Of a stretch of DNA of 42,114 nucleotides, positions 5,759 to 42,114 are shown in pieces. Source of the stretch: a virus (lineage: Duplodnaviria; Heunggongvirae; Uroviricota; Caudoviricetes). The notes under the pieces are model-generated. The model saw only the letters and a program-made list of their open reading frames with translations. It searched no databases and had not been told where the DNA came from. Each line of letters begins with the position of its first letter. Position 1 is the stretch's first letter. A program made the position numbers and the translations under genes. The DNA lies in IMG/VR virus record IMGVR_UViG_2585427728_000007; one strand, 5' to 3'.

Positions 5759-5785
5759 ATAAAAAAACCCGCTCGGCGGCGGGTT
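5759..5785 (-). terminator. Rho-independent terminator (minus strand)
   Basis: Minus-strand reading AACCCGC-CGCCGA-GCGGGTT followed by TTTTTTTAT; 7 bp GC-rich stem. Lies at the lower-coordinate edge of the moron, just before the spike gene start. Confidence 0.6.
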
Positions 5786-6315: not shown

Positions 6316-6320
6316 CTTGG

Positions 6321-6349
6321 CGCGCCGGTCAACCCGGCGCTTTTTCTTT
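6321..6349. terminator. Rho-independent terminator between convergent moron genes
   Basis: CGCGCCGG-TCAAC-CCGGCGC followed by TTTTTCTTT on the plus strand; sits in the 38 bp gap between the plus-strand ORF (stop 6315) and the minus-strand ORF (stop 6354). Confidence 0.65.
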
Positions 6350-6353
6350 ATAC

Positions 6354-6704: not shown

Positions 6705-6705
6705 A

Positions 6706-7770: not shown

Positions 7771-7772
7771 TT

Positions 7773-8078
7773 CTACTCCTGTACGAAAATGAGGTGGCTG
7801 TATGTGCCGAGGTTGGTTTTGGTGGGCTCGTCTGGTGCGCCCTTATCGGTCGCCACCACCAGCGCGCCATCAATGCCAAGCTGTGGATATTGTCGTAAAA
7901 GGTTTACGCCGGTCAGTAGAGGTACGCCAGAGAGAAGCGCGGCACCGCCGCTATCCATCACGTCCATAATCCAGCCAGCCGCATCACGCCAGATGATCCT
8001 GAGTGTATACGTGGTATTGCCCAGCAAAACGCGGAACTGCTGATTGTCAGGAGAAAGCGGTATTTCGTTAAACTGCAT
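7773..8078 (-). CDS. Hypothetical tail protein
   Basis: 101 aa ORF tightly packed between tail genes; no recognisable motif. Confidence 0.45.
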   Translation of the reverse strand: MQFNEIPLSPDNQQFRVLLGNTTYTLRIIWRDAAGWIMDVMDSGGAALLSGVPLLTGVNLLRQYPQLGIDGALVVATDKGAPDEPTKTNLGTYSHLIFVQE

Positions 8079-8079
8079 A

Positions 8080-8682
8080 TCATCCCCCGAATGCTGATGT
8101 AACGCTTCCGCCCAGCTGGCTCAGCAAGGATTCGTTTGGCGGTGTAGTGGATTTCATCCCGGAATTCTGCACCGCCGATGTGCTGACGCCATCCTGCATA
8201 TCTGATTTATCTGCAACGCTAACGCTCTGCGTCTGCGACATGATCACTTCACGCAGGGTAAGCGTGCAGTTCAGCACGTTCTCGCTGGTTTTATCCGTTG
8301 TCACCTCGATGGCTCGCACCAGCATATTGCTGTAAACCCGCTTTCCGGTCACTACATCGAACGGCACCCGAGAGGACTGTAGATCCAGTAGTTGCTGATA
8401 GGTCTCTTTCGGGCTAAGTCCGGCGCTGAGGCCGATTGACAATGTATCAATGAAGTCCAGCAACGAACCGCCACCAGCGAAGCCGCATTCCATTGTGACT
8501 TCGCTGGGGCGCTTATACGCATGATCGGCGATGAAGCCCGAAGCGCTATTCGTTGTTGGCTTCTCCACCGGGTGCTCAGTAATTTCGAGCGCATCAGAAT
8601 GCTTTTCGGAGACGACCACGCTGGGGATCAGCAGGCCAATTCGCCGGGATTGCTGGCGAAAAATCGCTGATAAAATATCCAT
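8080..8682 (-). CDS. Hypothetical tail protein (downstream of tape measure)
   Basis: 200 aa ORF whose start is adjacent to the tape measure stop; position comparable to Mu gp43. Confidence 0.45.
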   Translation of the reverse strand: MDILSAIFRQQSRRIGLLIPSVVVSEKHSDALEITEHPVEKPTTNSASGFIADHAYKRPSEVTMECGFAGGGSLLDFIDTLSIGLSAGLSPKETYQQLLDLQSSRVPFDVVTGKRVYSNMLVRAIEVTTDKTSENVLNCTLTLREVIMSQTQSVSVADKSDMQDGVSTSAVQNSGMKSTTPPNESLLSQLGGSVTSAFGG

Positions 8683-10697: not shown

Positions 10698-10874
10698 TGG
10701 CCGCTCTCCATTTATCTACCCGGGCGTCGTTATCCTCGCGCATGTCGAGGTAGTCATTGAGAAGCGCGATACGGCAGAGGTCTACCGCACCGCTGTTAAG
10801 GTCTTTCTGGTCAATATGGAAGGCAAGCGCCGGACGAAGAATAAAGTCTTCACCGCCCGGCAGGCTGTTGAAGG

Positions 10875-11300
10875 TTATTCCGCTGGCGGGGGGGGCGTCT
10901 CGCTGGTAGGGAGTCCTTGCAAAAAATTTCCCAGAGAGTCGGCGACCACCCGCGCCACCAGTTGCAGCATGGTCAGCAGGTCGATATCGTCAAACGCCAT
11001 TTCGCCATGCTGGCAGACCGGCACCCAGCCTTTCATGTGCTCGCGTGAAACAACGGAAAGGCAGGGGAACAGGATAGCGTCCACGTCGCCATCGCTCAGA
11101 TCGGACACAGCATTGGCAATCTTTGGCAGGATGGTAGCCATCGCGCCTTCGGTGTCTTTGCTGCTGATCTTCTCCTGAACGCTCCGGAAGTCAGAAACCA
11201 TCCCGGCCAGCACCGGCAACAGCTTGCGGGACACCTTCAGCTGTTCGAAAACGCTGAGCTTTGCGGTGCGATATTTCACGCCTTTAATTTCGAATTCCAT
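10875..11300 (-). CDS. Tail assembly chaperone (short form; see frameshift finding)
   Basis: 141 aa ORF between tail tube and tape measure; ends ...ETPPPPAE just after a run of eight C; the -1 frame stays open through the following 177 nt up to the tape measure start. Confidence 0.6.
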   Translation of the reverse strand: MEFEIKGVKYRTAKLSVFEQLKVSRKLLPVLAGMVSDFRSVQEKISSKDTEGAMATILPKIANAVSDLSDGDVDAILFPCLSVVSREHMKGWVPVCQHGEMAFDDIDLLTMLQLVARVVADSLGNFLQGLPTSETPPPPAE

Positions 11301-11303
11301 GCG

Positions 11304-11744
11304 TTAAAACTCCCCGAGAAGCTGGTCAATCTTGCCGCAGTCGAATACCCAGGCGACGGTTCCGCCCTCTTCAGCGTTATTGAAATCAGGCTGTTTCTGG
11401 AATGCACACGAACGCGCAGTAGAAATATCACCCGATGCCGTGTTGCGAATGACGATCACGTTATTGCCCCAGGTGGCAGAGGACTGGCTTTGCGCGTTAT
11501 ACGCCAGAGACAGCTTTTTATTCACCGGGGAGGTTTTGAGTAGCGTCACCGTAATGGTGCCTGACTTATCGGCGTGCAGGCTGTGCATCACCTCGCCATC
11601 GGCACCGATGGTCATGGTGTTTTTGTTGCCGCCCATGGTCTGGGTGATACCTTCCTCAGAGTTCGCAGAACCCTGACCAAGATCGATAACGCCGGTCGGC
11701 CCGGTGAGCGACGCGGTTACATCGAGAAAAGAATAAGTTGCCAT
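11304..11744 (-). CDS. Tail tube protein (contractile tail)
   Basis: 146 aa ORF immediately downstream of the sheath-like gene and upstream of the chaperone; size and order typical for tube proteins. Confidence 0.6.
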   Translation of the reverse strand: MATYSFLDVTASLTGPTGVIDLGQGSANSEEGITQTMGGNKNTMTIGADGEVMHSLHADKSGTITVTLLKTSPVNKKLSLAYNAQSQSSATWGNNVIVIRNTASGDISTARSCAFQKQPDFNNAEEGGTVAWVFDCGKIDQLLGEF

Positions 11745-11754
11745 TTATCGCTCC

Positions 11755-12915
11755 TTAGCGAACCACGTTGATCTGCACATCGGCATAATGAACTGCGCCA
11801 GCCAGCTTACAGGCCACCTGGATTAACGGTGCTTTGCGCGCTTCGCGGTCGGCCTGCGCCTGTTCGGACAGCGGTTGCGCATACACGTAATAGCCTTTGG
11901 TCAGCGTATCGCCGGAATTCAGTTGCCCGATAGGGCCACCATTCCACACGCCAGCCGCTACCAGACCGTTCGTGACGGACTGATCCATAGACTGTTCAAC
12001 GTTGGAAAGCAGACGGGTCACACCGGCATCAGTCTGCGGAATTTTGGTGGTGCTGGTGTAAAGCAGGTTATAGAGGTTGGTCTGAACGTAGTTCTGCAAC
12101 CAGTCGAGCCCGTGGCGCTCGTCGAAGAAGTCACCGTTCGCCATGACACCCTGTTGCAGGATCGCCGTGTCGTTGGCGTAGTACACGAACACGTTCGCAT
12201 TCTTCGTATCCACCGCAGCCGCCTGGCCTACCGTCAACGTTTCGTAGGTTACGCTCGGTTCCTGTTTGAATTTCAGGGTAATGGTGGTATTGCTGCCGTT
12301 GAAATTGACAGTAAACGCGCGACCGAAAGCTGAAACCGCCGCATAAGGGCTGCTGGTGGAATATTGAATAAAGGTACGGGAATACTTACCGGCCTTTAAT
12401 TTAGACGCAACATCGGTCGTCGAAGTCGTGCTGATGATCTCAGCGTCGGCTGACGTTACCCCGAAAATGCGGCTCAGGCTGGACGCTTCGATGAGTTTAG
12501 CAACCTCAATCACGTCGTCAGCATCAAGCACATCATCGCCATCAGCAACATCATCAGCGACAACCAGCCCATACCAGTTGGTATACTGCAGGCAGGCATT
12601 AACAGCTTGCACGATGGTTTCCACGCTTCCACCTTCGGAAGAGGTCAGCGTCTTCGCCCAGCGGCCAACATAAACCTGCGTCGGCTTCGGCGACTGGCTG
12701 AAGAAAACCTGCGCCGCTTCATATTCCGGGCTGTCGACTCCGAAGTCCTCGCCAATGTCCTCAACGGACGCATAAAGGCGGACGCGTTCCTGCACTGGAA
12801 TGACAGTGGAAGAACCGAGGATCAGCAGCGCGCCGAAGTTACGACCAGTAGCCGCTTTCGGCGAGATGATCACATCAACGTTTACAACGTTGGATACAGG
12901 TAAGCCCTGCGTCAT
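11755..12915 (-). CDS. Tail sheath protein (contractile tail)
   Basis: 386 aa ORF at the head of the sheath-tube-chaperone-tape measure block; baseplate V/W/J-like genes downstream support a contractile tail. Confidence 0.65.
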
Positions 12916-12918
12916 AGT

Positions 12919-13482
12919 TTATTCTCCAAAAAAGGTGACTGGCGCTTCCACCAGCGATTTAATACCGTACTCGCGCACAACCTTCCGGCGCAGGCGCACC
13001 GTCATGTCGTAGCGGCGAACCCATTGCTGGTTGATAAGTTCGGGGAAAGGGGTCAGACCGGTATAGTCGCCCAGAGACAAACCAAGCGCGTTCAGCTCAG
13101 CATTGTTTTGCGGGACAGATATGCCATCGCGAAAACGGGACGCATAAGACATACCAGCCGGGCCATAGAACGACGCCATGCACTCGAACGTTTCATGCCG
13201 CCAGAGCTGAGCGCCCTCGTCGGTCTGATTGGTGAATGCAGGGTTGTTATCAATGAGCAACCCGGTAACGCCAAACGCGCACCAGTTCGTTTCAACGGGT
13301 GGCAGTGGCGGCTGATTTTTCTGCCAGCGCGGACGAACCATTCCAGACGGCAAGCCGGAAACATTGCGCATCCACTGGCTTAACAGCCTGTCTAGCGCTT
13401 CGTCATAATCCGGATCGCCGCTGGTGGGTGTCAGCCAGCCGCGCTCTGTGCTGGTGTTATTGCTCAACGGGAGTTCCCCCAT
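12919..13482 (-). CDS. Hypothetical virion protein (head-tail joining region)
   Basis: ORF-track ORF 12919..13545 begins at a non-ATG codon and overlaps the upstream gene; first in-frame ATG is at 13482 (MGELPLSNN...). Start is uncertain. Confidence 0.4.
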   Translation of the reverse strand: MGELPLSNNTSTERGWLTPTSGDPDYDEALDRLLSQWMRNVSGLPSGMVRPRWQKNQPPLPPVETNWCAFGVTGLLIDNNPAFTNQTDEGAQLWRHETFECMASFYGPAGMSYASRFRDGISVPQNNAELNALGLSLGDYTGLTPFPELINQQWVRRYDMTVRLRRKVVREYGIKSLVEAPVTFFGE

Positions 13483-13846
13483 CAAACGGCAGTAATTCGC
13501 AATGTGCCTGGACGAAGCCAGCACCGTAAGCCGTGTACGGGTCAACGAATGTCACACGATAATCACGGTTCTGGTACGTCACGATATCGGCGTCACGGCC
13601 AGTCTGCCCCTGCGTCAGCCGCTCAGTTGTCACGATGAGAATCGCGCCACTGATAACCTGGCCGGACTGCATACGTCGGTTTTCGAGAGAGCGGTCAACG
13701 GTAACAACTCCGGCAAACTGCGTTTTAACTTCGCTGTCGCTGCCGATCCCGTCCTCGTCCACCGTTTGCGCGCGACGCGTTACCCACAGGTTGAAGTCGC
13801 AAAAATCGGGGTCAAAAAGTACGTCCGTCACATCAAGATTCGGCAT
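13457..13846 (-). CDS. Hypothetical virion protein (head-tail joining region)
   Basis: 129 aa ORF in the structural operon; no recognisable motif. Confidence 0.45.
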   Translation of the reverse strand: MPNLDVTDVLFDPDFCDFNLWVTRRAQTVDEDGIGSDSEVKTQFAGVVTVDRSLENRRMQSGQVISGAILIVTTERLTQGQTGRDADIVTYQNRDYRVTFVDPYTAYGAGFVQAHCELLPFDGGTPVEQ

Positions 13847-14420
13847 CTTTATCCCTCACAATATGGGTAATGGCTCTGCGGTACTGTCCGGTATCAATCA
13901 ACGGCCTTACATTCTCATTGCTTATCAATTGACCAGAATCTGGGTTGATAGCATTAAGCTTTCCGTCTGCCGATCTGCGTGCTAACTCAGCTTTCGCCCC
14001 TTTGCGCCCTCGACGCGCGCGGGCTTCAACGGTGCTATCAGCAAGCGGTGTAAAGCCGGTAATGGTCATGTAACGCCTGACGCCATTCGCGGCCAGCGTT
14101 CCGGCGCGGTTAAGCGCTCTTTCCGCCCCCGCCGCATTTCCATCAAGCGCAGCCTGCGCCGCTGCTTTGAGCTGCGGCACCGTCTGTTCCTCTACGGATT
14201 TAACGCCGGGGATCAGGTGCGGGCGTGGGGGGATGTTTTGCGCTGGTGAGCCGTATTCGTTGACGTAACCGATCCCGGCATTACCAAACGGAACATCCTC
14301 ACGCTCGCTGTCTTCTTCCGGGATGCCCACCAGCACATCCTTTTTGGTTAGCGACCGGAGCGCATCCAGAATGGCCTGAGCGTTATCAACCCTCGTTGTT
14401 ACACCACTTTTGAAACTCAT
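13833..14420 (-). CDS. Hypothetical virion protein
   Basis: 195 aa ORF in the structural operon; short overlaps with neighbours consistent with translational coupling. Confidence 0.45.
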
Positions 14421-14860
14421 AGCTGGCGACCGCCCGCACCGAACATCGTGATCAGCTGATAAAATTCAGCGCCATATCGGGTGTTATTCCAGAAGCCTGC
14501 GTCAGGGTTTAGCGTCGCGCTGGTGTCATAGCTGACGCTTACCTTGTCAACGGACTTGGAGGACTGAACACCATTGGTTGAGCCACCCGGGCCGCCGACG
14601 AGCATTGCCCGGCTATCTGCCGCCCAGAGCGTCATGTAGTGAGCCACGAACAACTCGACAAAGTACAGAAACAACTCTTTGCCGGTGACGTTTTCGCTCA
14701 GCAGCACATCAGCCAGATTCAGACGAAACTGGATTTGTGCTTCGGGATATTTGGCAGGGTCAGCAAACTGTGGAAAGTCGCGCCGAAAATCACTTACTGT
14801 TGGCAGGCTTTGATTCTTTGGCATCTTTCGCCCCATTACCGCCAGTCTGGGCGGCAGCAA
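14417..14860 (-). CDS. Hypothetical virion protein (possible head-tail connector component)
   Basis: 147 aa ORF; overlaps the upstream ORF by about 70 nt, so the true start may be an internal Met (MGRKMPKNQ...). Confidence 0.45.
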
Positions 14861-15179
14861 TCTGCGCTTGCAGGCTGTCTTTCTGCTCTTGCAGCTTGAG
14901 CAGCGCTTCTTTCAGATCGGCAATCAGCTGATCTTTATCGACAATCTGCTTATCTTTGTCGGCAATCTGCGCTTGCAGGCTGTCGATAATGGGTTGCAGA
15001 TCATCGGTGTCGCTAATCACGCTTTCGGAAAGCTCAGAGTGCGCCTGGGTGAACCAGTGAGACGCGACCTCTTCCGGTACGTTATGCCGCCCCCGGCCAA
15101 ACTCCTGTTTTGACTGATCGCCGAGCGTCAGCGTAAACGGGGTGTGAACATGGATGGTAACCAGCTTTTCTTTCGCCAT
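14790..15179 (-). CDS. Hypothetical coiled-coil protein downstream of the major capsid gene
   Basis: 129 aa; C-terminal half is heptad-like and repetitive ([43 protein letters not shown]), encoded by a 23 bp perfect direct repeat at 14857 and 14962. Confidence 0.5.
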
Positions 15180-15220
15180 TTTCAGTTTCCTTCTGGCCCC
15201 TTTCGGGGCCGTTCTGGTTA

Positions 15221-16162
15221 TCAGATACCGTCCACGTAGGACAGGGTTTCTTTGTACACTGGCTCAACCGCACCGAGCTTGCCGTAATAGGTCGCAATCT
15301 GGTACAGACCGCGATACTGGACAGGAACGCTTTGCAACGGCACCAGCGGATAGCGCACGTATTTCTTGTCGTTGGTGTAGGCGACCATACGGTCTTTACC
15401 GCCAACTCCGCGCCCTTTCAGCCATTTGACCGCTTTGATTTCCAGCGGAACGCCGTTCTGGTGGAAAGCGATAGTGTTCACGGCCAGATAGGTCAGCAGT
15501 GACTGGTTACCCGCTTCGGAAACCTTACGGCTCGCCAGCAGTGAATACTGCTCTGGCGGAATGCGCAGATCAGAAGGCACGACGGAATAACCGGATGCTG
15601 CCCAGGCATTCGACAGAATGCTGTTCACGCTATCGAGAATCTCGTCGTTGGTGGAGTTCGCCCAGGTCTTCGGCGCATTGTTCAGCGTCACACCGACAAG
15701 GTTTGCCAGCCCTTTCAGGCCGAGCGCATCATCGCCAATGTAAACCTGCTCGTCGTTGTCCATCTGCCATTTGAGCTGCATCCCGTCGTACTTCTGGGTA
15801 TCAATCGGGCGACCTACCTGCTGAGCTGCTGCCAGCTCTACAACGGTCCAGCCCAGTTCCATGCCCCAGAGGTTCAGCGGATTGCCGTCTTTGCCGATAT
15901 CAACATTCACGCCAGCAATAGCAGTGGAGTCTTTGCCTACCCAGTTTTTACCGTTCGGATTTGCGCCAGTACCCGCAGCGCCAAAACTGGTGTTAGTCCA
16001 GCTGGAAATGTCATCTGCGATAGAAACGTCTTCACGCAGCTGAATATCGCGGGTCCAGGTGTAACCCACCAGCGGCAGGTTCAACGTCTGGTCGAGTCGC
16101 TCCAGCTCCCCGATGAGAAAGGCACCAGAGCTATCAACGGTTGCCTGATCAAAAGTAATCAT
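15221..16162 (-). CDS. Major capsid protein
   Basis: 313 aa ORF at the expected position after the scaffold/protease-like and small head genes; size typical of Mu-type major head subunits. Confidence 0.65.
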   Translation of the reverse strand: MITFDQATVDSSGAFLIGELERLDQTLNLPLVGYTWTRDIQLREDVSIADDISSWTNTSFGAAGTGANPNGKNWVGKDSTAIAGVNVDIGKDGNPLNLWGMELGWTVVELAAAQQVGRPIDTQKYDGMQLKWQMDNDEQVYIGDDALGLKGLANLVGVTLNNAPKTWANSTNDEILDSVNSILSNAWAASGYSVVPSDLRIPPEQYSLLASRKVSEAGNQSLLTYLAVNTIAFHQNGVPLEIKAVKWLKGRGVGGKDRMVAYTNDKKYVRYPLVPLQSVPVQYRGLYQIATYYGKLGAVEPVYKETLSYVDGI

Positions 16163-16173
16163 TCGTCTGTTCC

Positions 16174-16677
16174 TTAAATCTTCCAGGAGATTTCTGCATT
16201 GCCGTTAGCGTCACCGGCCCCTGTGAATTCGGCGTTGGTCAGCGCCACGTTTTTGCCACTGACGGACGTGGACATGAAGCCGCCCAGCGGCACTTTGATG
16301 GATTCATCAGTGGAGACGACAACGTATACCGGGTCGCCTTTTTTGATGGTGCTGGCATCAAAATCAGAACCGAGATTAACGGTCATGTAGCCACGCTTCA
16401 TGGCGTCACCCGGGAAGTTCTTATCCGTCCCCACCTGGCGAACCATGTCTGGCTGCGATGTGGTCGGATACGGACGAACGTAGATCCCCTTCACCTTGTC
16501 GGCGGTGTCACCGTCCGCCAGCGGCACGAAAAAGCCGTCAGCGTCATATTTGCCAGCCAGACCATAGGCAGCGAAGGCGTTAGCGGATTTAAGGATCACC
16601 GGTTCGACGGTTAAGTCCTGCGGGCGAGAGATAGCCCCGGCAATGCCAACAGGCATCCGGTACAGATATGCAGTCAT
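16174..16677 (-). CDS. Head protein (decoration or scaffold-like)
   Basis: 167 aa ORF between the protease/scaffold-like gene and the major capsid gene. Confidence 0.45.
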   Translation of the reverse strand: MTAYLYRMPVGIAGAISRPQDLTVEPVILKSANAFAAYGLAGKYDADGFFVPLADGDTADKVKGIYVRPYPTTSQPDMVRQVGTDKNFPGDAMKRGYMTVNLGSDFDASTIKKGDPVYVVVSTDESIKVPLGGFMSTSVSGKNVALTNAEFTGAGDANGNAEISWKI

Positions 16678-16681
16678 TGGA

Positions 16682-17914
16682 TTATCCTTTGCGGTTAGAC
16701 CAGAAGTCGGCGTTTTGTTTGTTCAGGGAAGCGATGCTGGTCATGCCCATATTTGGACGTTGTGCATCGCCCGTGGTGCTGCGGGTGTTTCGCCCTTTGG
16801 CAATCTCAGACACGGCGTTAAACGCCATATCGACCGATTGCTTGGGCAATTTGCGGATATCTGCATCACCGACAACCTGGCGAACCAGTGTTTTGTCAGC
16901 GGCGGACAGCACATCACGTTTGAACGCGGTCGGTTTCACCTTACGGCTCAGATCGATACCCGGAACGATAACTTCGGCACGATAAGCAGCGTCACCGGTA
17001 ATCGTGGTTTCCTCTTCGTCGTCCTCACCGTCGCCGGTAGGGTCTTTGTTATCTTTGCCGTCAGGCTTATCGTCGTTATCGCCCGTTGCAGTACCTTCCA
17101 GCTTAGCCAGCAGGGCTTTGAGCAAGGTTTTGATATCGTCCTCGCCGTCGCCGGTTGGCTCTCCGCCCATTTCCGGCTTTTTGTCCGGCAATGGTTGCTG
17201 CGGTGAAAGGTTAATGTTGAGGTTAACGCCGCTCGGCAGATCCCCTTCGTCACCCGTTACCGCCGCTGGCGCAGAGTCCAGCAGTTCGTTCATGGTGTCA
17301 GCGTCACCCGTTTTGATGGCCGTGCGCATGCGGGTCCACCAGCTTTTCTTTTGATTTGCCATTGTGTCTCTGTCTCCAATTGCACAACGATTTCCGGCTC
17401 TGCCTTTAGGGACAAGAGCCACATGGTTTCCGGTGATATCGACCTGCTCGGCTTTTCCGGGTTCGGTCTGCTCGTACTCAGCGTCATAGCCGCACGACAC
17501 TTCGCGCAGACCATCTTCGATCAGCTGAATGGCGCTTTCGTCTTTGACGATAAGGTCAGCCAGCATCCAATCAGACTGATCACCTGTCCCGCGCCGAACG
17601 TTCTGAAGATGCCCGACCGCAAGCTCTTTCCAGTTCTCGGGGTTGACCAGCCGCACATTCCCGTTTTCATCTTCAGGATGCAGGATCGTGATGCTCATCC
17701 CTTCGAATGAGGCGAGCGTGGCCGGATGGAATACCTGCTCAGGAGAACGCGTGACGACTATTTCACCGAACTTATCGGGTTTCAGTTTTGGCAGGTCATC
17801 AGCACCATAGAGCTGCTTACCTGTTCGTCCTATCGGCACGTCTTTGCACAGCAACGAGCCGTCAGCCAGCTGATAGCGGGTTTCCCCCAGCCGGGTATTG
17901 AAAAAATATTTCAT
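16682..17914 (-). CDS. Prohead protease / scaffolding-like protein
   Basis: 410 aa; highly acidic low-complexity segment (TGDGEDD...DKPDGKDNKDPTGDGEDDEEE) typical of scaffolding proteins; sits between the head morphogenesis and capsid genes. Confidence 0.5.
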   Translation of the reverse strand: MKYFFNTRLGETRYQLADGSLLCKDVPIGRTGKQLYGADDLPKLKPDKFGEIVVTRSPEQVFHPATLASFEGMSITILHPEDENGNVRLVNPENWKELAVGHLQNVRRGTGDQSDWMLADLIVKDESAIQLIEDGLREVSCGYDAEYEQTEPGKAEQVDITGNHVALVPKGRAGNRCAIGDRDTMANQKKSWWTRMRTAIKTGDADTMNELLDSAPAAVTGDEGDLPSGVNLNINLSPQQPLPDKKPEMGGEPTGDGEDDIKTLLKALLAKLEGTATGDNDDKPDGKDNKDPTGDGEDDEEETTITGDAAYRAEVIVPGIDLSRKVKPTAFKRDVLSAADKTLVRQVVGDADIRKLPKQSVDMAFNAVSEIAKGRNTRSTTGDAQRPNMGMTSIASLNKQNADFWSNRKG

Positions 17915-17928
17915 GGTTTACCTGCGAT

Positions 17929-18702
17929 TCAGGCGAGATAAGAATGAGGGTTGGGGAAGACGATTTCTTTGTAACAGCGGCAGTTCGGGAGCTCGCCAGC
18001 GTGACCGGTCATGCCGTCAAGCGTTGGAGGTCGGCCCCATTCGACAAACTTCCCTTCCATCTCTCGATGAGAATGCCGGACGTCGCCATCTTCGGCTGTA
18101 CGCCAGATATAACCATTCGAGCCGATTGACAGCGCACGCGCCTGATCCAGTGCACCGGTTGCGCGCCCAAGCTCAGTCCGGGCGATAAGGTTCGCTCGTG
18201 AGCGTGACACGTCACCGGAAGCAGCTATCTCTTTCGCGAATGGCTCAGCGCGGCCACCAGTTACTACAGCCTCGATGGCCTTGTTCTGAATGTCATACAC
18301 CCGATCGGCGGCCTCAAGAGGCAGAGATTTGATGTACTTAATTTGCTCGGCGACGATGGATTTCATCACCTGGCCTACCGGGGCGCGGTCGACCATGTTG
18401 CGTAGTTCTGCGCTGATGTTCCGACTGTGCTGACGCCACTGCTTTTCATTCTGGCGCGCAATGTCGGCGGTGAAGCTCTCAGCAACCTTAGTCGCCCAGG
18501 GAGTGATGATTTCGCTGTAGCGCTCCAGCGCATCCATTATTTCGGTGACGCTATCGTTTGAACCATCGTAGCGACCATTTACGATATCCCCGACCGCCCG
18601 CGCTATCTGCCGTAGGCTCGTTCGATATCGGATCTCCGCCTGGCGGCTCTGGCGGTTTGTCGCCAAGTTCGCCGATGCCTGGCGGCGCTTCGTCTTCGGC
18701 AT
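17929..18702 (-). CDS. Head morphogenesis protein (Mu F / SPP1 gp7-like)
   Basis: 257 aa; C-terminal ...NGYIWRTAEDGDVRHSHREMEGKFVEWG...CRCY... matches the conserved core of the Mu gpF-like family; ATG at 18702 has a GAGGA Shine-Dalgarno and lies 152 nt inside the portal gene 3' end. Confidence 0.7.
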   Translation of the reverse strand: MPKTKRRQASANLATNRQSRQAEIRYRTSLRQIARAVGDIVNGRYDGSNDSVTEIMDALERYSEIITPWATKVAESFTADIARQNEKQWRQHSRNISAELRNMVDRAPVGQVMKSIVAEQIKYIKSLPLEAADRVYDIQNKAIEAVVTGGRAEPFAKEIAASGDVSRSRANLIARTELGRATGALDQARALSIGSNGYIWRTAEDGDVRHSHREMEGKFVEWGRPPTLDGMTGHAGELPNCRCYKEIVFPNPHSYLA

Positions 18703-20020
18703 TCTCGATATCCTCGTCGGTAATGGATGCCCCGATGCCGGTGACGTCAGAGTTTTCGCGCAGGTCGGTCATCGCCGCCTTACGCGTCATCAATCCGTCG
18801 CCCAGCGCGGTACTGATCGCGTTGGTGGTGTTTACGGCCACCGTTGATCGGTCAACGTCTGACATTTGCCATAGCGGGTTAAACTCAAACGTGAAATCGT
18901 CCGGCAGCGGCTTTCCGAGTTCCGAGCGGTGCATAATGTCCAGTATCCGGCGCATCGGCAGTCGTAAGCGGCGCTCCTGCAATGAGCTCACCCGGTCGTA
19001 ATAGTTGGCGAGGTCTGCATCACCAGTAGAGAAGCCTTTCGGGGATTGACCGAACAGGCGTACCAGCGGGATACCAACGGCACCGCTGATCTGCTCAGCA
19101 AACTGCGAAAGAATGTCATCCAGACCACTAAAGCTGTACTGGTGGGTTTCGAACTTATCCCGCGAGTCCATGAGCGTCATACCTTCATTGCTCTGGAACT
19201 GGCGGATCAGGTCGATGTTCTTCAGCAACGCTTCGAACGCCGGGCCTCCAAGCGCGATAAGCTCGCGCAACTTCTCCACGCTATAGGTACGCAGATGCGC
19301 TTTATAGACCAGCTGCGCCGCGCCGACAGTAGCGCTATCGAACGCAGTAAGCCGATCCCAGATACGCTCTACAACCGACATTCCCCATTCGTTTTCGGTC
19401 ATCTTCTGCTGGAATGGCAGCGTGACGCCATCAAAGCGGATCAGGCGGCTGTGATGGATGCGCCAGGCCGGAATGCCCGTTGCGGTGGTCACCACGTCGT
19501 AAAACTCAGGCTTGCCGAGGTCCGGCCCCATCTCTTTAATGCGGCGTGTCAGCACCGGGTTAATCATCCAGCGGTCGAGCGGGAGAATGCCCTTAAACTT
19601 GCCCTCGCCAATGGTTTCGAGTCGCAGCGGGGTCATTGGTGCTTGCCCCTCGATCATGATGAAGCCGACCGCGCCGCCGTAGAGGCGCGACCATTTCAGC
19701 ACGTCGTTCAGCGCATCCCAGATCTGCAACTCATCCAGTTGCGCTTCGAGGGTGCCACGGTCTTTGGCGTCAATCTCCGAAGTGATGCGAATGCCCTTTC
19801 GGGTCATATCGTCCGGGATAGCGTCGACCGCTTCACCGATAACCCACGAACCGCGATATGACCATTCCACCAGCATGCGGTTGCGGCTGGGGAAGTTCGC
19901 CCGGTAGGTCGATGCTGAATGCTGGTTAGGCGTCTGCATCCCAACGCGGGCGACGAAGTTCTCGTAGCCGTCAGCGGTGGCCTGTGCCGTTCGCTGAGAG
20001 GATTGCTTGTTTCGTGCCAT
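18551..20020 (-). CDS. Portal protein
   Basis: 489 aa ORF immediately after the terminase large subunit (start overlaps its stop) and before the head morphogenesis gene; size and order as for portal proteins. Confidence 0.7.
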   Translation of the reverse strand: MARNKQSSQRTAQATADGYENFVARVGMQTPNQHSASTYRANFPSRNRMLVEWSYRGSWVIGEAVDAIPDDMTRKGIRITSEIDAKDRGTLEAQLDELQIWDALNDVLKWSRLYGGAVGFIMIEGQAPMTPLRLETIGEGKFKGILPLDRWMINPVLTRRIKEMGPDLGKPEFYDVVTTATGIPAWRIHHSRLIRFDGVTLPFQQKMTENEWGMSVVERIWDRLTAFDSATVGAAQLVYKAHLRTYSVEKLRELIALGGPAFEALLKNIDLIRQFQSNEGMTLMDSRDKFETHQYSFSGLDDILSQFAEQISGAVGIPLVRLFGQSPKGFSTGDADLANYYDRVSSLQERRLRLPMRRILDIMHRSELGKPLPDDFTFEFNPLWQMSDVDRSTVAVNTTNAISTALGDGLMTRKAAMTDLRENSDVTGIGASITDEDIENAEDEAPPGIGELGDKPPEPPGGDPISNEPTADSAGGRGYRKWSLRWFKR

Positions 20021-21642
20021 CAGGCCTGTCTCCCTAGCAGCTCCCAGATGTTCAGGGCTGAATTCATTGGCGCGTAGCTGATCATCACCGAGTCGGCGAG
20101 GTTCGGCGACTTGGTGCCATCAGGCTGTTTATCAACAACGATTTTCCCCACGCCATTAATGGAGTAGGTCGGCTGCGACAGCTCAATGATGAGTTTGTCT
20201 TTGCTCGCCATGGCGCTGCTGATTGAGATGATTTCGTCCGGGTTGTAGGCCATGCCCTCAACCACGGCGCGATAGGTGTTCTGGAAAAGCTTGCGTAGCC
20301 ACCACCAGCTCTGGGCTTTGGCGTTGGCGAAGAAGTCCTTGTTCAGGCGTGCGGCCTGTCCGTTGTCCCCGCGCACCGCTTCATCGTCCGGATCAAATAC
20401 CGCGCCGCTACCACGAAACGGTGTGGCGAGTATTGACGGTCGGCGCGCTGCGTAACGCAGTTCGTTGATGGCGCGCGCATCGCCGCGAACGCCAGCACCC
20501 AGGCCGTCCTCGTCGAAGCGAAACTCTTCGAGGTTGTCCTGTTCGCAAAAGCCGAAGACCTTCTCAACAGACTGGTAAATGTCGCTGCCAACGCCGGACC
20601 ATTCACGCACGTTCTCCAGGAGGAAGCCGTGACGGGTCGAAAAGGCGTTTTTGTCCCGGCCTTCGTCGGCGACGTCCATCGCGCCCAGGCGTTTGCCCGT
20701 TGGCTGGATGCCCAGCTTAATATGAGCGTCGACGGCAGCCTGTACCCAGTCGGACGGGATCAGGACGCCTTCCGCAGATGCGCTGTAGTTCAGGTCAAGT
20801 TCCTGCGCTACCACCACCGGATTGTCGATTTTCTCGCATTCCCTGCGATACCACTCTTCATCCTTGCGCGGGTCATTTCGCCAGTGGAATGTGAATACCG
20901 GTATCTTCCCGCCGTGACGCTTCTGCGCGAACGGGTTCGCCATGCCGTTAACCGAACTCAGGTCGATACGGCAGCGAGTGGTTTGCGACAGCGCCGCATC
21001 AATCAGCAGAGGGCGCTGGAGGAATGCGGCCTCATCCACCAGGTAGAGCGTGGTACGGTCACCACGACCAATATTATCGCCAGCCTCGCCTTTGATAACG
21101 GCACCAGTTTCAGGAAACTCAACACGCATATATGGCGCGTGCTTCTTCTCGCTCCACGAACCGCGAAACTCTACAGGTAGTGTTTCCACGAACTTGCGCG
21201 CCTTCCAGAACAATGCTTTCGGGTCACCAGTGCTGTCGACGTATTCCTCTTTACGGGAGCCGAAACCGATAACCATTTCTTTGTTGAAGAGACAAAGCGA
21301 GCAGGCCAGTCCGATCGCGGTCCAACTGAGCCCCATTTCACGGGATTTTTCGGTAATACCATTCTCCCGATTACCCCAGCGTTCCATAATCCAGTGGATC
21401 CACTCCTCCTGCTTAGGGAATAGTAAAAACGGAATGGTCACCGGCAGGCCATAATCAATATTACGCGGGTCCGTTGTCATGCCCCAGTCGATGATGAACT
21501 GAGCCGGATTGGTTCGGTAAAACTGTTTTAGTGCAGGCAATATTTCAGGATTCTGGCGAATGCGCTGTAAGCGTTCCATCCGCCATTCAAAAACCATCTG
21601 GTAATCAGGATGTTTAAAATCGAAGGGGAATGGTAACGGCAT
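20020..21642 (-). CDS. Terminase large subunit
   Basis: 540 aa; N-terminal ATPase region followed by a nuclease region with acidic motifs ([14 protein letters not shown]); directly downstream of the small subunit gene. Confidence 0.85.
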
Positions 21643-24460: not shown

Positions 24461-24536
24461 TGGTGCTGGTTAACGGACTTGAACCGCTACCCATTCGCTT
24501 ACAAGGCGACCGCTCTACCATTGGAGCTAAACCAGC
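24461..24536 (-). tRNA. tRNA, anticodon TGT (Thr) by manual fold
   Basis: Minus-strand 76 nt GCTGGTT-TA-GCTC-CAATGGTA-GAGC-G-GTCGC-CTTGTAA-GCGAA-TGGGT-AGCGG-TTCAAGT-CCGTT-AACCAGC-A-CCA; perfect 7 bp acceptor stem, GTTCAAGTC T-loop, U33 and A37 flanking TGT, encoded CCA. Confidence 0.65.
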
Positions 24537-24541
24537 ATGTT

Positions 24542-24616
24542 TGGCGGGACAGCGTGGACTCGAACCACGATAAGAAGGTTAACAGCCTTCCGTAATGACC
24601 TTTATACGACTGACCC
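24542..24616 (-). tRNA. tRNA, anticodon GTT (Asn) by manual fold; atypical D-arm
   Basis: Minus-strand 75 nt GGGTCAG-...-GAAGG-CTGTTAA-CCTTC-TTAT-CGTGG-TTCGAGT-CCACG-CTGTCCC-G-CCA; perfect anticodon and T stems, GGTTCGAGTCC T-arm, one T-T mismatch in the acceptor stem, D-loop lacks the usual GG. Confidence 0.55.
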
Positions 24617-35393: not shown

Positions 35394-35497
35394 TATGAAT
35401 AAGCACTGTGTATTCATTCCAACGAGTGAATACACGGAGCAATGTCGCTCGTAACTAAACAGGAGCCGACTTGTTCTGATTATTGGAAATCTTCTTT

Positions 35498-35524
35498 GCC
35501 CTCCGATGTGAGGGCGATTTTTTT
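35498..35524 (+). terminator. Rho-independent terminator in the pL operon
   Basis: GCCCTC-CGATGT-GAGGGC followed by GATTTTTTT, ending 13 nt before the ATG of the coiled-coil gene. Confidence 0.55.
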
Positions 35525-35536
35525 GATGGAGGATAT

Positions 35537-36505
35537 ATGAGTGAAGTAACAGATTTAGTTGTTATTGAAAAAGCAAATGCAATGACTGTATTTCAGTCTG
35601 CCGACCAGATTGAAGAAATCCTTCAAAAGGTTGAACGTGAAGTTATGTCCTTTGTGCCTGATATCACAACGGCAAAGGGCAGAAAGGAGATCGCTTCTCT
35701 GGCGTATAAAGTTGCGCAGACGAAAACATATCTCGATGGTCTTGGAAAAGACCTTGTTGCTGAACTGAAGGAAATTCCAAAGCTAATTGATGCCAACCGC
35801 AAGACAGTGCGTGATCGCCTTGATGAGCTGAAATCCAAGGCACGCCAGCCTCTTACTGATTATGAGGAGGAACAGGCACGGATTAAAGCCGAAGAAGAAG
35901 CTAAGGCAGCAGCTGAAGCTCTCGCAAAGCAAATTGAGTCTGACCATGAAATAGCTATTTTGATGGATTGCGAATTTGACCGCCAAAGAGAAGAGGCAAG
36001 ACTCAAAGCGGAGCAGGAAAAGCGAGAGCATGAAGAACGCTTAAAAAGAGAAGCTGAAGAGAAAGCCAGAGCAGAAGCCGAAGCAAAGGCAAAAGCCGAA
36101 ATTGAAGCAGCAGCAAGGCGAGAAGCAGAAGCTAAGGCCGCAGCGGAACGTGCAGAGCGTGAACGTATTGAAGCCGAGCAACGAGCACAGCGCGAAGCAA
36201 AAGAGGCAGCAGAACGAGCTGAAAGAGAAAAGCAGGCGGCAATTGAAGCAGAACGCCGAAAAGCACAGGAGGAGGCTGAACGAATCCGGCGCGAGGCTGA
36301 AGCAAAAGAGCAAGCCAGAATAGCAGAAGAAAAAAGAATCAAGGAAGAAGAAGAGTGTAGAGCAAAGGATAAAGCTCACCGGAAAGAAGTAAATAACAAA
36401 ATACTTGCTGACCTTATCAAGGTTGGCGCATCAGAAGATGTTGCTAAAAATATCATAACAGCCATCGTAAAAGGCGAAGTATTCGCAACAAAAATAACCT
36501 ACTAA
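35537..36505 (+). CDS. Hypothetical charged coiled-coil protein (TolA-like Ala/Glu/Lys/Arg-rich repeat region)
   Basis: Start taken at ATG 35537 (MSEVTDLVVIEK...) with GGAGG; the longer ORF-track start would translate through the terminator; about 200 aa of AEAKAKAEIEAAARREAEAKAAAERAERE-type low-complexity helix. Confidence 0.55.
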   Translation: MSEVTDLVVIEKANAMTVFQSADQIEEILQKVEREVMSFVPDITTAKGRKEIASLAYKVAQTKTYLDGLGKDLVAELKEIPKLIDANRKTVRDRLDELKSKARQPLTDYEEEQARIKAEEEAKAAAEALAKQIESDHEIAILMDCEFDRQREEARLKAEQEKREHEERLKREAEEKARAEAEAKAKAEIEAAARREAEAKAAAERAERERIEAEQRAQREAKEAAERAEREKQAAIEAERRKAQEEAERIRREAEAKEQARIAEEKRIKEEEECRAKDKAHRKEVNNKILADLIKVGASEDVAKNIITAIVKGEVFATKITY

Positions 36506-37052: not shown

Positions 37053-37760
37053 ATGGATTTGAACAAATTCGATGATCCATTCAGCCCTGAAGATATCGAA
37101 TGGCGAATACAGCAAAGCGGTAAAACACGCGATGGCAAGGTGTGGGCTATGGTGCTGGCTTATGTCACGAACCGGGCAATCATGAAACGCCTGGACGATG
37201 TTTGCGGCAAAGCAGGATGGCGCAATGAATACCGCGATATTCCCAACAACGGCGGCGTTGAATGCGGCATATCAATAAAGATTGATTCCGAATGGGTAAC
37301 CAAATGGGATGCTGCTGAAAACACGCAGGTAGAAGCCGTCAAAGGTGGTCGTTCCGGTGCAATGAAGCGCGCTGCCGTTCAGTGGGGAATCGGTCGGTAT
37401 CTGTATAACCTTGAGGAAGGTTTCGCACAAACATCTCTCGATAAAAAGCAGGGGTGGCACAGGGCAAAACTGAAGGATGGAACAGGATTTTACTGGCTCC
37501 CTCCATCGCTGCCAGGATGGGCAATCCCAGCATCAGATAACAAACCATCACCAGAAAATACCAACCAGAAATCTCCATCGGTTGACTGCGAACAAATCCT
37601 GAAAGACTTCAGCGATTATGCATCAACAGAAACTGACAAGAAAAAACTCATCGAGCGTTATCAGCGTGACTGGCAATTAATGGCTGGCAACGAGGAGGCG
37701 CAGGCTAAATGCGTTCAGGTAATGAACATCAGAGTTAACGAACTAAAACAGGCGGCATAA
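37053..37760 (+). CDS. Single-strand annealing protein, Rad52/Sak-like
   Basis: 235 aa; ...KGGRSGAMKRAAVQWGIGRYLYNL... resembles the conserved hairpin-helix region of Rad52-family annealases; immediately followed by ssb. Confidence 0.6.
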   Translation: MDLNKFDDPFSPEDIEWRIQQSGKTRDGKVWAMVLAYVTNRAIMKRLDDVCGKAGWRNEYRDIPNNGGVECGISIKIDSEWVTKWDAAENTQVEAVKGGRSGAMKRAAVQWGIGRYLYNLEEGFAQTSLDKKQGWHRAKLKDGTGFYWLPPSLPGWAIPASDNKPSPENTNQKSPSVDCEQILKDFSDYASTETDKKKLIERYQRDWQLMAGNEEAQAKCVQVMNIRVNELKQAA

Positions 37761-38234
37761 ATGGGAAGTAGAGGCGTAAATAAGGTGATCATTATTGGTC
37801 GCCTTGGGCATGATCCAGAAATCAGATATTCACCATCAGGAACGGCATTTGCAAACCTTACAGTTGCTACGTCAGAACAATGGCGTGATAAGCAAACTGG
37901 AGAGCAAAAGGAGCAGACGGAGTGGCACCGTGTGGTAATGAGCGGGAAACTGGCAGAAATTGCCAGCGAATATCTGCGAAAAGGCTCTGAGGTTTATCTT
38001 GAAGGAAAATTGCGGACAAGAAAATGGCAGGATCAAAGCGGGCAGGATCGGTTCACTACCGAAGTCATCGTGGGCGTTGGTGGAACCATGCAAATGCTTG
38101 GTGGCAAGCAAGGAGGCAATGAACAGTCTTCACCTCAGCGAAATGACGGTCAGCAACAAAGACAGCAACCTCAGCAGCAAGGGAATCACAGCGAACCACC
38201 TATGAACTTCGACGATTCGGATATTCCGTTCTAG
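37761..38234 (+). CDS. ssb: Single-stranded DNA-binding protein
   Basis: 157 aa; OB-fold N-terminus ([18 protein letters not shown]...), Gly/Gln-rich linker and acidic tail ending DDSDIPF. Confidence 0.9.
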
Positions 38235-38243
38235 GAGCTGAAT

Positions 38244-38723
38244 ATGAAAATCTGCTCAAGATGCCATCAACAGAAGGAAGAAAGGGACTTTCAAATCAGA
38301 AGAGCATCCAGAGATGGATTAACTGCCGCTTGCCGGGCTTGCCTGGCTGAATACGACAAAGAGCGCGCGGGATTGCCACATCGAGTATCAGCAAGGAGAG
38401 AATATCAATCATCGGAACTCGGCAGAGAACGGTGTAACGCAGCCAAAAAGCGGTTCATTCAGAGCAACCCATGGAAAAGAAAAGCCCACATCATCGTGGG
38501 TAATTTTTTGCGCGACGGTAAGCTAATCCGACCACCACAATGTGAGTGCTGCGGATCAGAATGTAAACCACAGGCGCACCACTGCGACTACAGCAAACCA
38601 ACCGATGTGATGTGGCTCTGCAAGTCATGTCATGTCGAGTGGCACAAACATAACAAACCTATCTACCCAGACGAGGAGCCAGTAACTCTCCCCTTCCCTC
38701 GTCACGCTATTCACGCAATTTAA
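38244..38723 (+). CDS. Zinc-finger protein, possible HNH-type nuclease
   Basis: 159 aa; N-terminal CxxC...CxxC and C-terminal CECCGSEC...HHCDY...CKSCHVEWH arrangement; sits between ssb and the exonuclease. Confidence 0.45.
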   Translation: MKICSRCHQQKEERDFQIRRASRDGLTAACRACLAEYDKERAGLPHRVSARREYQSSELGRERCNAAKKRFIQSNPWKRKAHIIVGNFLRDGKLIRPPQCECCGSECKPQAHHCDYSKPTDVMWLCKSCHVEWHKHNKPIYPDEEPVTLPFPRHAIHAI

Positions 38724-38731
38724 GGACTTAC

Positions 38732-39280
38732 ATGAATCACTTAATGGTTGACCTTGAAACAATGGGCAACGGGCCATATGCGCCAGTTATTTCTATTGGG
38801 GCGGTATTCTTTGACCCGAATACCGGAGAAACAGGAGAAGAGTTCTCGGTAAATATCTCGCTTGAGTCATCAATGCGATATCGGGCGCGTCCTGACGCTT
38901 CAACGATTTTATGGTGGATGGAACAGAGTGAAGAAGCCAGAAAATCGCTAACCAGCAACACTCAAGAGCTTTCAACGGCTCTTTCATGGTTATCTGAATT
39001 CATCATAAAGAACGCCAACCACAAACTCGTTCAGGTTTGGGGGAATGGAGCATCATTTGACTGCGTTATTCTCCGCAACAGTTATTCGCTGACAGGGCAG
39101 CCAGTTCCGTGGCAGTGGTGGAATGACCGCGACGTAAGAACAATCGTCGAACTTGGGAAGGCAATAGGATTCGACCCTAAGCGAGATATGCCATTCAAAG
39201 GAACTCGCCACAACGCGCTTGATGATGCCATCCACCAAGCCAAATACGTTTCAGCGATCTGGAAAAAGTTAGCTAAATAA
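38732..39280 (+). CDS. 3'-5' exonuclease (DEDDh / DnaQ-like fold)
   Basis: 182 aa; Exo I motif MVDLETMG (Asp, Glu) and Exo III motif HNALDDA (His, Asp). Confidence 0.7.
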   Translation: MNHLMVDLETMGNGPYAPVISIGAVFFDPNTGETGEEFSVNISLESSMRYRARPDASTILWWMEQSEEARKSLTSNTQELSTALSWLSEFIIKNANHKLVQVWGNGASFDCVILRNSYSLTGQPVPWQWWNDRDVRTIVELGKAIGFDPKRDMPFKGTRHNALDDAIHQAKYVSAIWKKLAK

Positions 39281-39296: not shown

Positions 39297-39593
39297 ATGC
39301 CAGCGCCTCTATATGGTGCGGACGACGCGCGCCGCTGTTCCGGCAATTCCGTATCGGAGGTGCTGGATAAATTCAGGAAAAACTACGACCGGATAATGTC
39401 GCTACCGCAGGAAACGAAAGAGGAAAAGGAATTTCGCCATTGTATATGGCTTGCAGAGAAAGAAGAACGCGAGCGAATTTACCAGACATCAATCCGACCA
39501 TTCCGCAAAGCCACATATACCCACTTCCCTGAATATATCGACCCGCGCCTGCGTAATTACCGCTCACGCTATGGCGCTATCAGTAATGACTGA
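39297..39593 (+). CDS. Hypothetical protein
   Basis: 98 aa ORF with AGGAG Shine-Dalgarno. Confidence 0.45.
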
Positions 39594-39603: not shown

Positions 39604-39771
39604 ATGAGAGGACTTGCATACAATCCCGGCATTCTTCCGGTAGAAATGATTATTCGCCAACGCGTAAAGCCAATGCCATCGAGAGAGGAATTGCTTAAGA
39701 GAAATTCTTTTCCATCAGTAAATCAAAACAAATATCTGAATGCGATGTGGCGCAAAGGAGGCAACCAGTGA
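39604..39771 (+). CDS. Hypothetical small protein
   Basis: 55 aa ([15 protein letters not shown]...), GAGGAA before the ATG; stop overlaps the GTG start of the next gene. Confidence 0.35.
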
Positions 39772-41913: not shown

Positions 41914-42114
41914 ATGCAACACGAACTACAGCCTGATTCACTGGTTGATTTGAAATTCATCATGGCCGATACTGGCTTCGGTAAAACCTTCATCTATGAC
42001 CGGATTAAGTCCGGCGACCTGCCTAAAGCCAAAGTTATCCACGGTCGAGCAAGATGGTTATATCGTGACCATTGTGAATTCAAAAATAAGCTCTTAAGCC
42101 GCGCCAATGGGTAA
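41914..42114 (+). CDS. AlpA/Xis-like DNA-binding protein (excisionase-type regulator)
   Basis: 66 aa; ...LKFIMADTGFGKTFIYDRIKSGDLPKAKVIHGRARWLYRD... matches the AlpA-family helix-turn-helix found with P4-type integrases; stop codon is the last three bases of the window. Confidence 0.7.
   Translation: MQHELQPDSLVDLKFIMADTGFGKTFIYDRIKSGDLPKAKVIHGRARWLYRDHCEFKNKLLSRANG

Follow-up and report, generated by a model that had tools for sequence, protein, structure and literature searches.

The 42,114-nt DNA of the virus record IMGVR_UViG_2585427728_000007 (Caudoviricetes; 'the window', that is, the whole stretch analysed) encodes on its + strand a recombination (Rec) module of five genes, which specify a Rad52-type single-strand annealing protein (SSAP; 'annealase'), a protein that binds single-stranded DNA (SSB), an HNH-like protein, a DEDDh 3′-5′ exonuclease and the anti-RecBCD protein Abc2. 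With a probability of roughly 0.75, it is a Rec module of the lambdoid pL operon whose core consists of the annealase, SSB and Abc2, whose DNA resection is supplied by Abc2-bound host RecBCD, and whose nuclease genes are optional additions of an accessory or selfish kind. The gene identities and the comparative pattern reported below come from the window and its relatives, and the biochemical steps are modelled on P22, HK620 and lambda.

Abc2 of the window matches Pfam PF11043 at 204 bits (cutoff 25) and is 92% identical to P22 Abc2. Its residue 68, as read from the sequence, is Pro, as in the P22 protein, where Pro68 contacts host PpiB (PMC9836394). P22 Abc2 binds RecC; RecBCD then keeps its helicase and nuclease activities, turns Chi-blind and shows more cutting of the 5′ strand (PMC9836394). 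In the accepted P22 model, RecBCD is hijacked in this manner to supply single-stranded DNA (ssDNA) for the phage annealase (Wilkinson 2022, PMC9836394; the same model is attributed to Murphy 2000 as cited in PMC5928155). Based on the 92% identity, Pro68 included, Abc2 of the window would act on RecBCD as its P22 counterpart does: it would bind RecC and render RecBCD Chi-blind, the enzyme would mainly cut the 5′ strand, and 3′ single-stranded tails would be left on the ends of phage DNA. Since RecBCD would be co-opted by Abc2 rather than blocked, no phage 5′-3′ exonuclease would be needed. Thus, with Abc2 adjoining the module, host RecBCD and not the phage 3′-5′ exonuclease is the most likely source of end processing. 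A first-pass annotation, which ended at the exonuclease gene and overlooked the adjacent abc2, had suggested that the pairing of an annealase with a 3′-5′ exonuclease may reflect a different end-processing route; this proposal is not supported, given the presence of Abc2 and the occurrence of the exonuclease in only 26 of 79 related loci. As a caution, the absence of Red genes together with a 3′-5′ exonuclease does not amount to a new resection route when Abc2 adjoins.

These related loci derive from 80 IMG/VR loci whose annealase is ≥99% identical to that of the window; one truncated locus was left out, and the remaining 79 were classified by gene content. SSB and Abc2 are present in all 79, whereas the nuclease genes vary: 30 loci carry none, 22 carry the exonuclease only, 16 carry only the HNH gene that follows ssb, and six carry only a third cassette that encodes an HNH_3 plus helix-turn-helix (HTH) protein. 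Combinations account for the others, namely exonuclease plus third cassette (two loci), HNH plus exonuclease as in the window (two) and HNH plus third cassette (one). The exonuclease is therefore found without the post-ssb HNH gene in 24 loci and the latter without the exonuclease in 17, and the boundaries of the cassettes are sharp. Across these loci, then, the annealase keeps SSB and Abc2 as its constant partners, while nuclease genes come and go as optional parts. The HNH-like and DexA-like genes would represent two independent optional cassettes at the ssb-abc2 junction, accessory or selfish in nature, rather than a resection nuclease.

As to the later steps, the annealase, helped by SSB, would anneal the 3′ tails to complementary ssDNA, while its C-terminal domain would bind a partner such as the SSB tail. 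This annealing step is predicted from its analogues P22 Erf, HK620 Sak4-SSB and Red-beta; ring formation and ssDNA annealing by the 235-residue protein are putative.

Several points weigh against this account of the module. The Sf6-type proteins have been described as 'not studied experimentally', and the role of the module is predicted from sequence. HNH genes of this family are found behind ssb in module types of three kinds that are not homologous, and annealase-SSB modules harbour DEDDh exonucleases from two subfamilies; given such recurrent association, the nucleases may have a part in recombination and not be simple passengers. Moreover, the Erf-type C-terminal domain of the annealase (below) is also found in phages without Abc2 and hence is not an adaptor specific to Abc2 or RecBCD, and the 16 Chi sites of the genome are atypical for Abc2 phages.

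Gene identities and the chimeric annealase

For the four genes from annealase to exonuclease (37053-39280, + strand), the first-pass annotation proved accurate: the coordinates are exact, and profile searches, motif residues and Foldseek all support the identities of a Rad52-like annealase, an SSB, a zinc-finger/HNH-like protein and a DEDDh exonuclease (Table 1). The gaps between the four open reading frames (ORFs) are 0, 9 and 8 nt, and abc2 starts 16 nt further downstream. The reported lack of lambda exo, bet and gam was likewise borne out, as the three lambda proteins, used as tblastn queries on the whole window, gave no E better than 0.3. A similarity search of the window also found no homologs of P22 arf and abc1.

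Residues 5-136 of the annealase match Pfam PF04098 (Rad52_Rad22) at 91 bits (cutoff 20.3; E 9e-26), and this family is present in 120 of 120 annealase homologs among the matches listed. The 235-residue protein thus stays inside the annealase families. Its AlphaFold model (pLDDT 83) consists of a beta-rich core, a disordered linker (around residues 162-175) and a three-helix C-terminal domain. A sequence search of the PDB with the annealase gave no match and a fold search was used instead, in which the top 16 Foldseek hits in the PDB were human RAD52 or yeast Mgm101 (probability ~1.0; E 2e-4 to 5e-3). With both the PF04098 match and the RAD52/Mgm101 fold matches, the protein has the Rad52 N-terminal fold (beta-beta-beta-alpha core) and is of the Rad52/Sak type and not of the Red-beta type, as had been suggested.

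The remainder of the protein resembles a different annealase. Residues 157-235 align with residues 134-205 of P22 Erf at 63% identity (E 2e-30), and no similarity was found by BLASTP between the N-terminal parts of the two proteins. PF04404 (ERF) does not match the annealase of the window, but it does match the proteins of P22, HK022, GZ7, EhrS_49 and IME1369_01. The annealase is a chimera of a Rad52 core and an Erf tail, and the database label 'Erf-like' is only half right, as the likeness to Erf is confined to the C-terminal domain. Such chimerism is not new: a GenBank note of 2004 records that ST104 ORF13 resembles ul36 Sak as well as P22 Erf.

The Erf-type C-terminal domain (window 37521-37757) carries the pattern EQILKDF...W..L.G...Q.KC..V..IR.NELKQAA and was found by tblastn in 127 phage records; it matched no family in Pfam (E up to 10) or NCBIfam. 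Three cores were found joined to it: (i) Rad52 (window, Sf6 and ST104); (ii) the ERF core of P22 and HK022; (iii) a divergent ERF core (GZ7, EhrS_49 and IME1369_01). It co-occurs with Abc1 plus Abc2, with Abc2 alone, with SSB alone or with none of these. Attachment to three cores and co-occurrence with such varied partners points to domain shuffling of a presumed partner-binding module. Red-beta offers a parallel, as its C-terminal domain binds lambda Exo and the tail of host SSB (PMC11611040); by this analogy, the most likely role of the C-terminal domain of the annealase is to bind a partner, of which the SSB tail would be one example. A strict rule by which the domain serves as an Abc2-RecBCD adaptor was considered and rejected, since EhrS_49, GZ7 and IME1369_01 carry the domain and are devoid of Abc2.

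Table 1. Positions of the Rec module genes and of other features in the window.
Feature	Position	Strand	Match or remark
Single-strand annealing protein, 235 aa	37053-37760	+	Pfam PF04098 (Rad52_Rad22)
Phage SSB (OB fold), 157 aa	37761-38234	+	PF00436; TIGR00621
HNH-like protein (putative beta-beta-alpha-Me fold), zinc-ribbon plus helical part, 159 aa; optional cassette 1	38244-38723	+	PHROG 2340
DEDDh (DnaQ-like) 3′-5′ exonuclease, Rv2179c-like/T4 DexA-like, 182 aa; optional cassette 2	38732-39280	+	PF16473
Abc2, anti-RecBCD	39297-39593	+	PF11043; outside the first-pass coordinates, belongs to the module
Small ORF, 57 aa	36780-36953	+	PHROG 2123 ('recombinase' label), E 9e-42; HK97 gp42.1-like; P22 arf position
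Small ORF, 56 aa	36874-37044	+	PHROG 1723 ('recombinase' label), E 9e-36; HK97 gp42 / Sf6 gene 29-like
DUF2737 / P22 orf56 homolog	39604-39771	+	75% identity to P22 orf56; PHROG 1117
340-aa coiled-coil protein, Glu/Ala/Lys/Arg-rich	35483-36505		PHROG 1376; Sf6 gene 33 homolog; upstream of cIII
tRNA-Thr(TGT) and tRNA-Asn(GTT), adjacent	24461-24616	-	nin/late-regulator region on one side, lysis genes on the other
Integrase gene	1-1158		start of the window
Structural genes	2800-23300		myovirus-like
Excisionase-like ORF	41914-42114		end of the window

Among the flanking genes, the 57-aa ORF accompanies the annealase in most related loci, the 56-aa ORF overlaps it and is kept in conserved synteny in relatives, and the DUF2737/orf56 homolog comes after abc2 in nearly all related loci. 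Equivalence of the 57-aa ORF to P22 Arf was also considered; the sole match spans 7 residues (SDEEFI; E 0.014), and homology to Arf is not claimed.

The ssb junction and the HNH-like cassette

The SSB matches PF00436 (132 bits; E 1e-38) and TIGR00621 (181 bits; cutoff 54), and its C terminus, read directly, is ...NFDDSDIPF*, a canonical free acidic tip. The HNH-like protein encoded next matches PHROG 2340 ('endonuclease') at E 9e-47, with no match in Pfam (HNH models included, E up to 10) or NCBIfam; as a sequence search of the PDB gave no match, a fold search was used instead. In an alignment of 30 sequences, Cys4 sites are conserved at two places and the HH...D...H core does not vary, with C100, C103, H112, H113, D115, H130 and H134 invariant and C126 and C129 near-invariant among the 30 homologs. 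D121 may be read as an Asp at the position where the Asn of the motif is expected.

The junction between the two genes (window 38195-38723) is polymorphic among relatives. The HNH cassette lies in frame and precisely behind the codons for DIPF in ssb; its presence is perfectly correlated with the form of the SSB end across ~150 loci, over 110 of which are HNH-less: where the HNH gene is present, SSB ends ...DIPF*, and where it is absent, SSB reads DIPF+APVTLPFPRHAIHAI, whatever the SSB allele (50-100% identical in the sample). The last 14 residues of this 15-residue extension, APVTLPFPRHAIHAI, are identical to the C terminus of the HNH protein; SSB forms with the extension are 168 or 171 aa long. 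Three features mark this shared tail as part of the locus and not of the HNH family: the family profile does not extend over it, HNH homologs from elsewhere do not have it, and the model shows it as disordered. Moreover, the genes of HNH homologs (35-83% identity) invariably begin directly behind an ssb that ends DIPF(N)*, be it beside a Rad52-, an ERF- or a Sak4-type annealase. In E. coli SSB, one extra glycine at the tip abolishes chi binding (PMC3045619); by analogy, the 15-residue extension should mask the C-terminal tip of SSB. The tip of the window SSB is free.

One explanation of the nuclease genes that these observations bear on is that they are selfish mobile cassettes, the HNH protein being a free-standing homing endonuclease that acts on the conserved DIPF-coding 3′ end of ssb. 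Under such an explanation, the HNH-less read-through allele would be either a deletion scar or a cleavage-resistant site, and the exonuclease may widen the break, as T4 DexA does during intron homing. We hold it to be possible, at odds clearly short of even. The perfect correlation at the junction, the locus-bound shared tail and the fixed position of HNH homologs behind DIPF(N)* all argue for it, as does the variable presence of cassettes among otherwise near-identical modules. So does the third optional cassette, which encodes a 155-aa HNH_3 + HTH protein (PF13392, E 1e-13) with the typical architecture of a free-standing homing endonuclease; located between the annealase gene and ssb (for example, L018:5709-6176), it is found in 9 of 80 otherwise near-identical IMG/VR modules and is absent from the window. 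However, cleavage of the ssb 3′ end by the HNH protein is putative, the long-term synteny of HNH and ssb could equally mean a functional partnership with SSB, and the lack of a seamless junction leaves the sequences compatible with insertion as well as with deletion. Since the selfish-cassette explanation concerns the accessory genes only, it is compatible with a core of annealase, SSB and Abc2.

A more specific and more doubtful proposal is that the HNH protein is a homing endonuclease specialised on the DIPF-coding 3′ end of ssb, whose gain and loss switches SSB between its two forms. If true, an HNH-bearing phage would have a free DIPF tip on its SSB through which the SSB interactome of the host and, presumably, the annealase could be engaged. 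A selfish element would then change the set of host proteins open to recruitment by the phage SSB, with the DexA-like exonuclease as a second cassette that aids break processing. At the ssb/HNH junction, nature has in effect tested how much the C-terminal tip of SSB matters, and this junction is the one feature here that is worth modest follow-up.

Certain database gene calls fuse SSB with the HNH protein, or the HNH protein with exonuclease sequence (P0073, P0076, P0086 and P0114), and the 90% cluster that holds the HNH protein also holds SSB proteins of 157 aa. Deletion derivatives of this recombination-prone junction, together with a clustering artefact, are the probable explanation.

The DexA-like exonuclease

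The exonuclease matches PF16473 (Rv2179c-like) over its full length at 247 bits (cutoff 27), and its DEDDh residues could be read from the sequence as D7 and E9 (MVDLET), D110 (ASFD), and H160 and D165 (HNALDD). Its nearest solved relative is T4 DexA (8KEL/8KEN; E 1e-13), which is a 3′-5′ DNA exonuclease preferring ssDNA and which contributes to intron homing initiated by double-strand breaks. The two proteins share 33% identity over 140 residues, with the catalytic Exo I and Exo II residues aligned. Unlike the 227-residue DexA, the 182-residue protein of the window is devoid of an equivalent of the tetramerisation residue D90 in the alignment and is encoded within the Rec module of a temperate phage. 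Its 3′-5′ polarity and DNA substrate are predicted by analogy with T4 DexA; the Pfam name says exoribonuclease.

Relatives of the exonuclease are found in ~1,900 phage records. The gene is inserted cleanly, right after the TAA stop of the shared tail and ahead of the ribosome-binding site of abc2. No promoter-like site was found upstream of the nuclease genes, with promoter-like sites being fewer than in shuffles.

A dedicated partnership between this exonuclease and the annealase, in which the former would provide alternative end processing (5′ tails, or trimming of 3′ flaps and non-homologous 3′ ends), is judged unlikely. It would accord with the position of the gene, which is squeezed in closely between its neighbours ssb/HNH and abc2, and whose close homologs (≥90% identity; 79 loci) are always found in that ssb-abc2 slot. 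It would also accord with an ExoX-like DEDDh subfamily that heads Sak4-SSB-HNH modules in Pantoea and Hafnia, where Abc2 is absent among the genes scanned, with the part of T4 DexA in intron homing, and with Zheng et al. (PMC12315714), who count the DnaQ-type gene of epsilon34 as a legitimate member of its Rec module. However, the exonuclease is missing from 53 of the 79 modules with an essentially identical annealase, 30 of which harbour no nuclease at all, while Abc2 is invariant and provides the resection route established in P22. Furthermore, 3′-5′ ssDNA exonucleases 'curiously' usually inhibit such recombination, as stated by Zheng et al. citing Lovett 2011 (PMC12315714), and the more distant homologs are found in unrelated contexts (PY54, an 826-aa fusion in phage Evi, and T4 dexA). 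That relatives dispense with the exonuclease argues against an obligatory role in recombination. Still, its recurrent association (with the ssb-abc2 slot, in the ExoX-like modules and, for DexA, in intron homing) makes an accessory role possible, such as flap or end trimming.

A role outside recombination was weighed as well. Kang et al. 2025 (PMC12153337) reported that EcD, a DexA homolog of E. coli, cuts 5-hydroxymethylcytosine (5hmC) DNA and not unmodified double-stranded DNA and protects against T4, with bacterial homologs being commonest in Escherichia, Citrobacter and Klebsiella. The exonuclease could accordingly be a prophage defence or exclusion nuclease of the 'HREX' type that degrades, like EcD, the 5hmC DNA of superinfecting T-even phages. 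In its favour, W130 of the window protein aligns with W152 of DexA, and the equivalent of D90 is absent. The equivalent of D169 falls outside the alignment. However, EcD is of a different sequence type (its cloning primers specify MIDTET...TIPETY, versus MNHLMVDLET...KKLAK here), and PADLOC returned only a weak generic DEDDh match. In addition, the exonuclease gene lies 8 nt behind the preceding ORF in the repressed pL operon with no promoter-like site, so that expression in a lysogen is not expected. Given the difference in sequence type and this location, a defence role like that of EcD is less likely, and we give it only a slim chance. Identity with the published EcD itself was rejected, as the cloning primers show a different protein.

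In Escherichia phage Evi (L172:1578-4058), a DexA-like DEDDh domain forms the C terminus (residues 642-816) of the 826-aa protein encoded right after kil. The protein is labelled 'exodeoxyribonuclease of prophage CP-933P', and its N-terminal 640 residues have no Pfam match.

Related modules and the genome context

The module was found by megablast in 241 phage records and in 1,107 of 5,426 complete E. coli genomes. Coverage was ≥80% in 100 of the E. coli genomes, which is not a clean count of the five-gene form, as HNH-less versions also pass 80%; the combination of HNH and exonuclease is present at 100% coverage in at least eight complete E. coli genomes, and also in Escherichia phage CurroJimenez_Bas106 (PQ850599). 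The arrangement is not unusual, as it is present in some form in about one-fifth of complete E. coli genomes. The module class is already known, having been catalogued in 2025 (PMC12315714), and near-identical copies exist in characterised phages and many E. coli prophages.

Phage Bas106 carries the same five genes in the same order at 98.3% nucleotide identity over 95% of the query; essentially no difference is seen within the module, while the rest of the window differs. The same annealase-SSB-Abc2 core, at ~89-98% nucleotide identity, is encoded by Sf6 genes 28-25, mEpX2 gp33-30, epsilon34 gp36-33 and HK75 gp32-30. These phages differ in their cassettes: Sf6 has the HNH cassette only, mEpX2 and epsilon34 the exonuclease only and HK75 neither, whereas the window has both.

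The gene order of the window, cIII-kil-(small ORFs)-SSAP-...-abc2-orf56, mirrors the early-left operon of P22, cIII-kil-arf-erf-abc1-abc2-orf56. The arf-erf-abc1-abc2 genes of P22 share the operon position and logic of the module, including Abc2 (92% identical), orf56 as the next gene and the Erf C-terminal domain. In the window, however, the annealase core is Rad52/Sak (PF04098) and not ERF (PF04404), and SSB plus two nuclease cassettes replace abc1. ST104 is an intermediate that combines a chimeric annealase of the window type with abc1-abc2. The hkaM-sak4-ssb-abc2 genes of HK620 likewise bring together an annealase, its cognate SSB and Abc2 (Hutinet et al. 2018), and there SSB stimulates recombineering in a manner that needs its acidic tail (PMC5928155); HK620 differs in that its annealase is the RecA-like Sak4, its SSB is non-canonical and nuclease cassettes are absent. 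Lambda Red holds the same operon position and does the same overall job, with an annealase acting on resected ends and RecBCD neutralised. In lambda, however, RecBCD is blocked by Gam, whereas in the window, devoid of exo, bet and gam homologs, RecBCD is expected to be co-opted by Abc2. Pairs of a Rad52-core annealase and its cognate SSB from E. coli phages could be of use in recombineering toolkits.

Modules from Pantoea (L176:909-3498) and Hafnia (L178:901-3540) comprise an ExoX-like DEDDh exonuclease, a Sak4-like annealase, an SSB and an HNH protein of the window family. Their SSB belongs to PHROG 743 and ends DDDIPFN*, and no Abc2 was seen among the genes scanned.

In the survey of 325 lambdoid genomes by Zheng, Casjens, Davidson, Amundsen and Smith (2025; PMC12315714), Rec modules were grouped by SSB, nuclease, annealing protein and anti-RecBCD function, and DnaQ-like 3′-5′ and HNH nucleases were reported inside them. 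The 'HK75' and 'ES18' types of that survey correspond to module forms seen here. With its four functions contiguous between kil and orf56, the window falls into the 'ES18' functional type (Table 1 of PMC12315714), while its combination of two nuclease genes is outside the three double-function cases given there.

With an integrase gene at its start and an excisionase-like ORF at its end, the window has the look of a complete temperate genome in circularly permuted form. The genome is of the standard lambdoid temperate kind and also encodes a CI-like repressor, a DnaB-like helicase and NinG. Upstream of the module are an N-like antiterminator, the 340-aa coiled-coil protein, cIII, kil and the two small ORFs. 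For the structural genes, the nearest match is Citrobacter phage Omnitron, with 95% identity across 70% of the first 25 kb, whereas the Rec module is nearest to podo- and siphoviruses of E. coli and Shigella, unlike these myovirus-like genes; the genome is therefore strongly mosaic.

The window contains 16 Chi sites (GCTGGTGG) versus ~1.3 expected, a number reached in none of 100 shuffles. All 16 lie in the structural-gene region (4579-20309), 13 of them on the coding strand of the late genes, and a scan of the whole window found the early regions and the surroundings of the Rec module free of them. A genome that is rich in Chi and yet encodes Abc2 belongs with the class called 'rare, exceptional' by Zheng et al. 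2025 (PMC12315714; their Fig. 7), who interpret it as a recent mosaic of Chi-rich, Rec-less and Chi-poor, Rec-bearing lineages.

The 340-aa coiled-coil protein is kept in both Sf6 and Bas106. Long ORFs on the opposite strand across its gene are apparent by-products of its biased composition.

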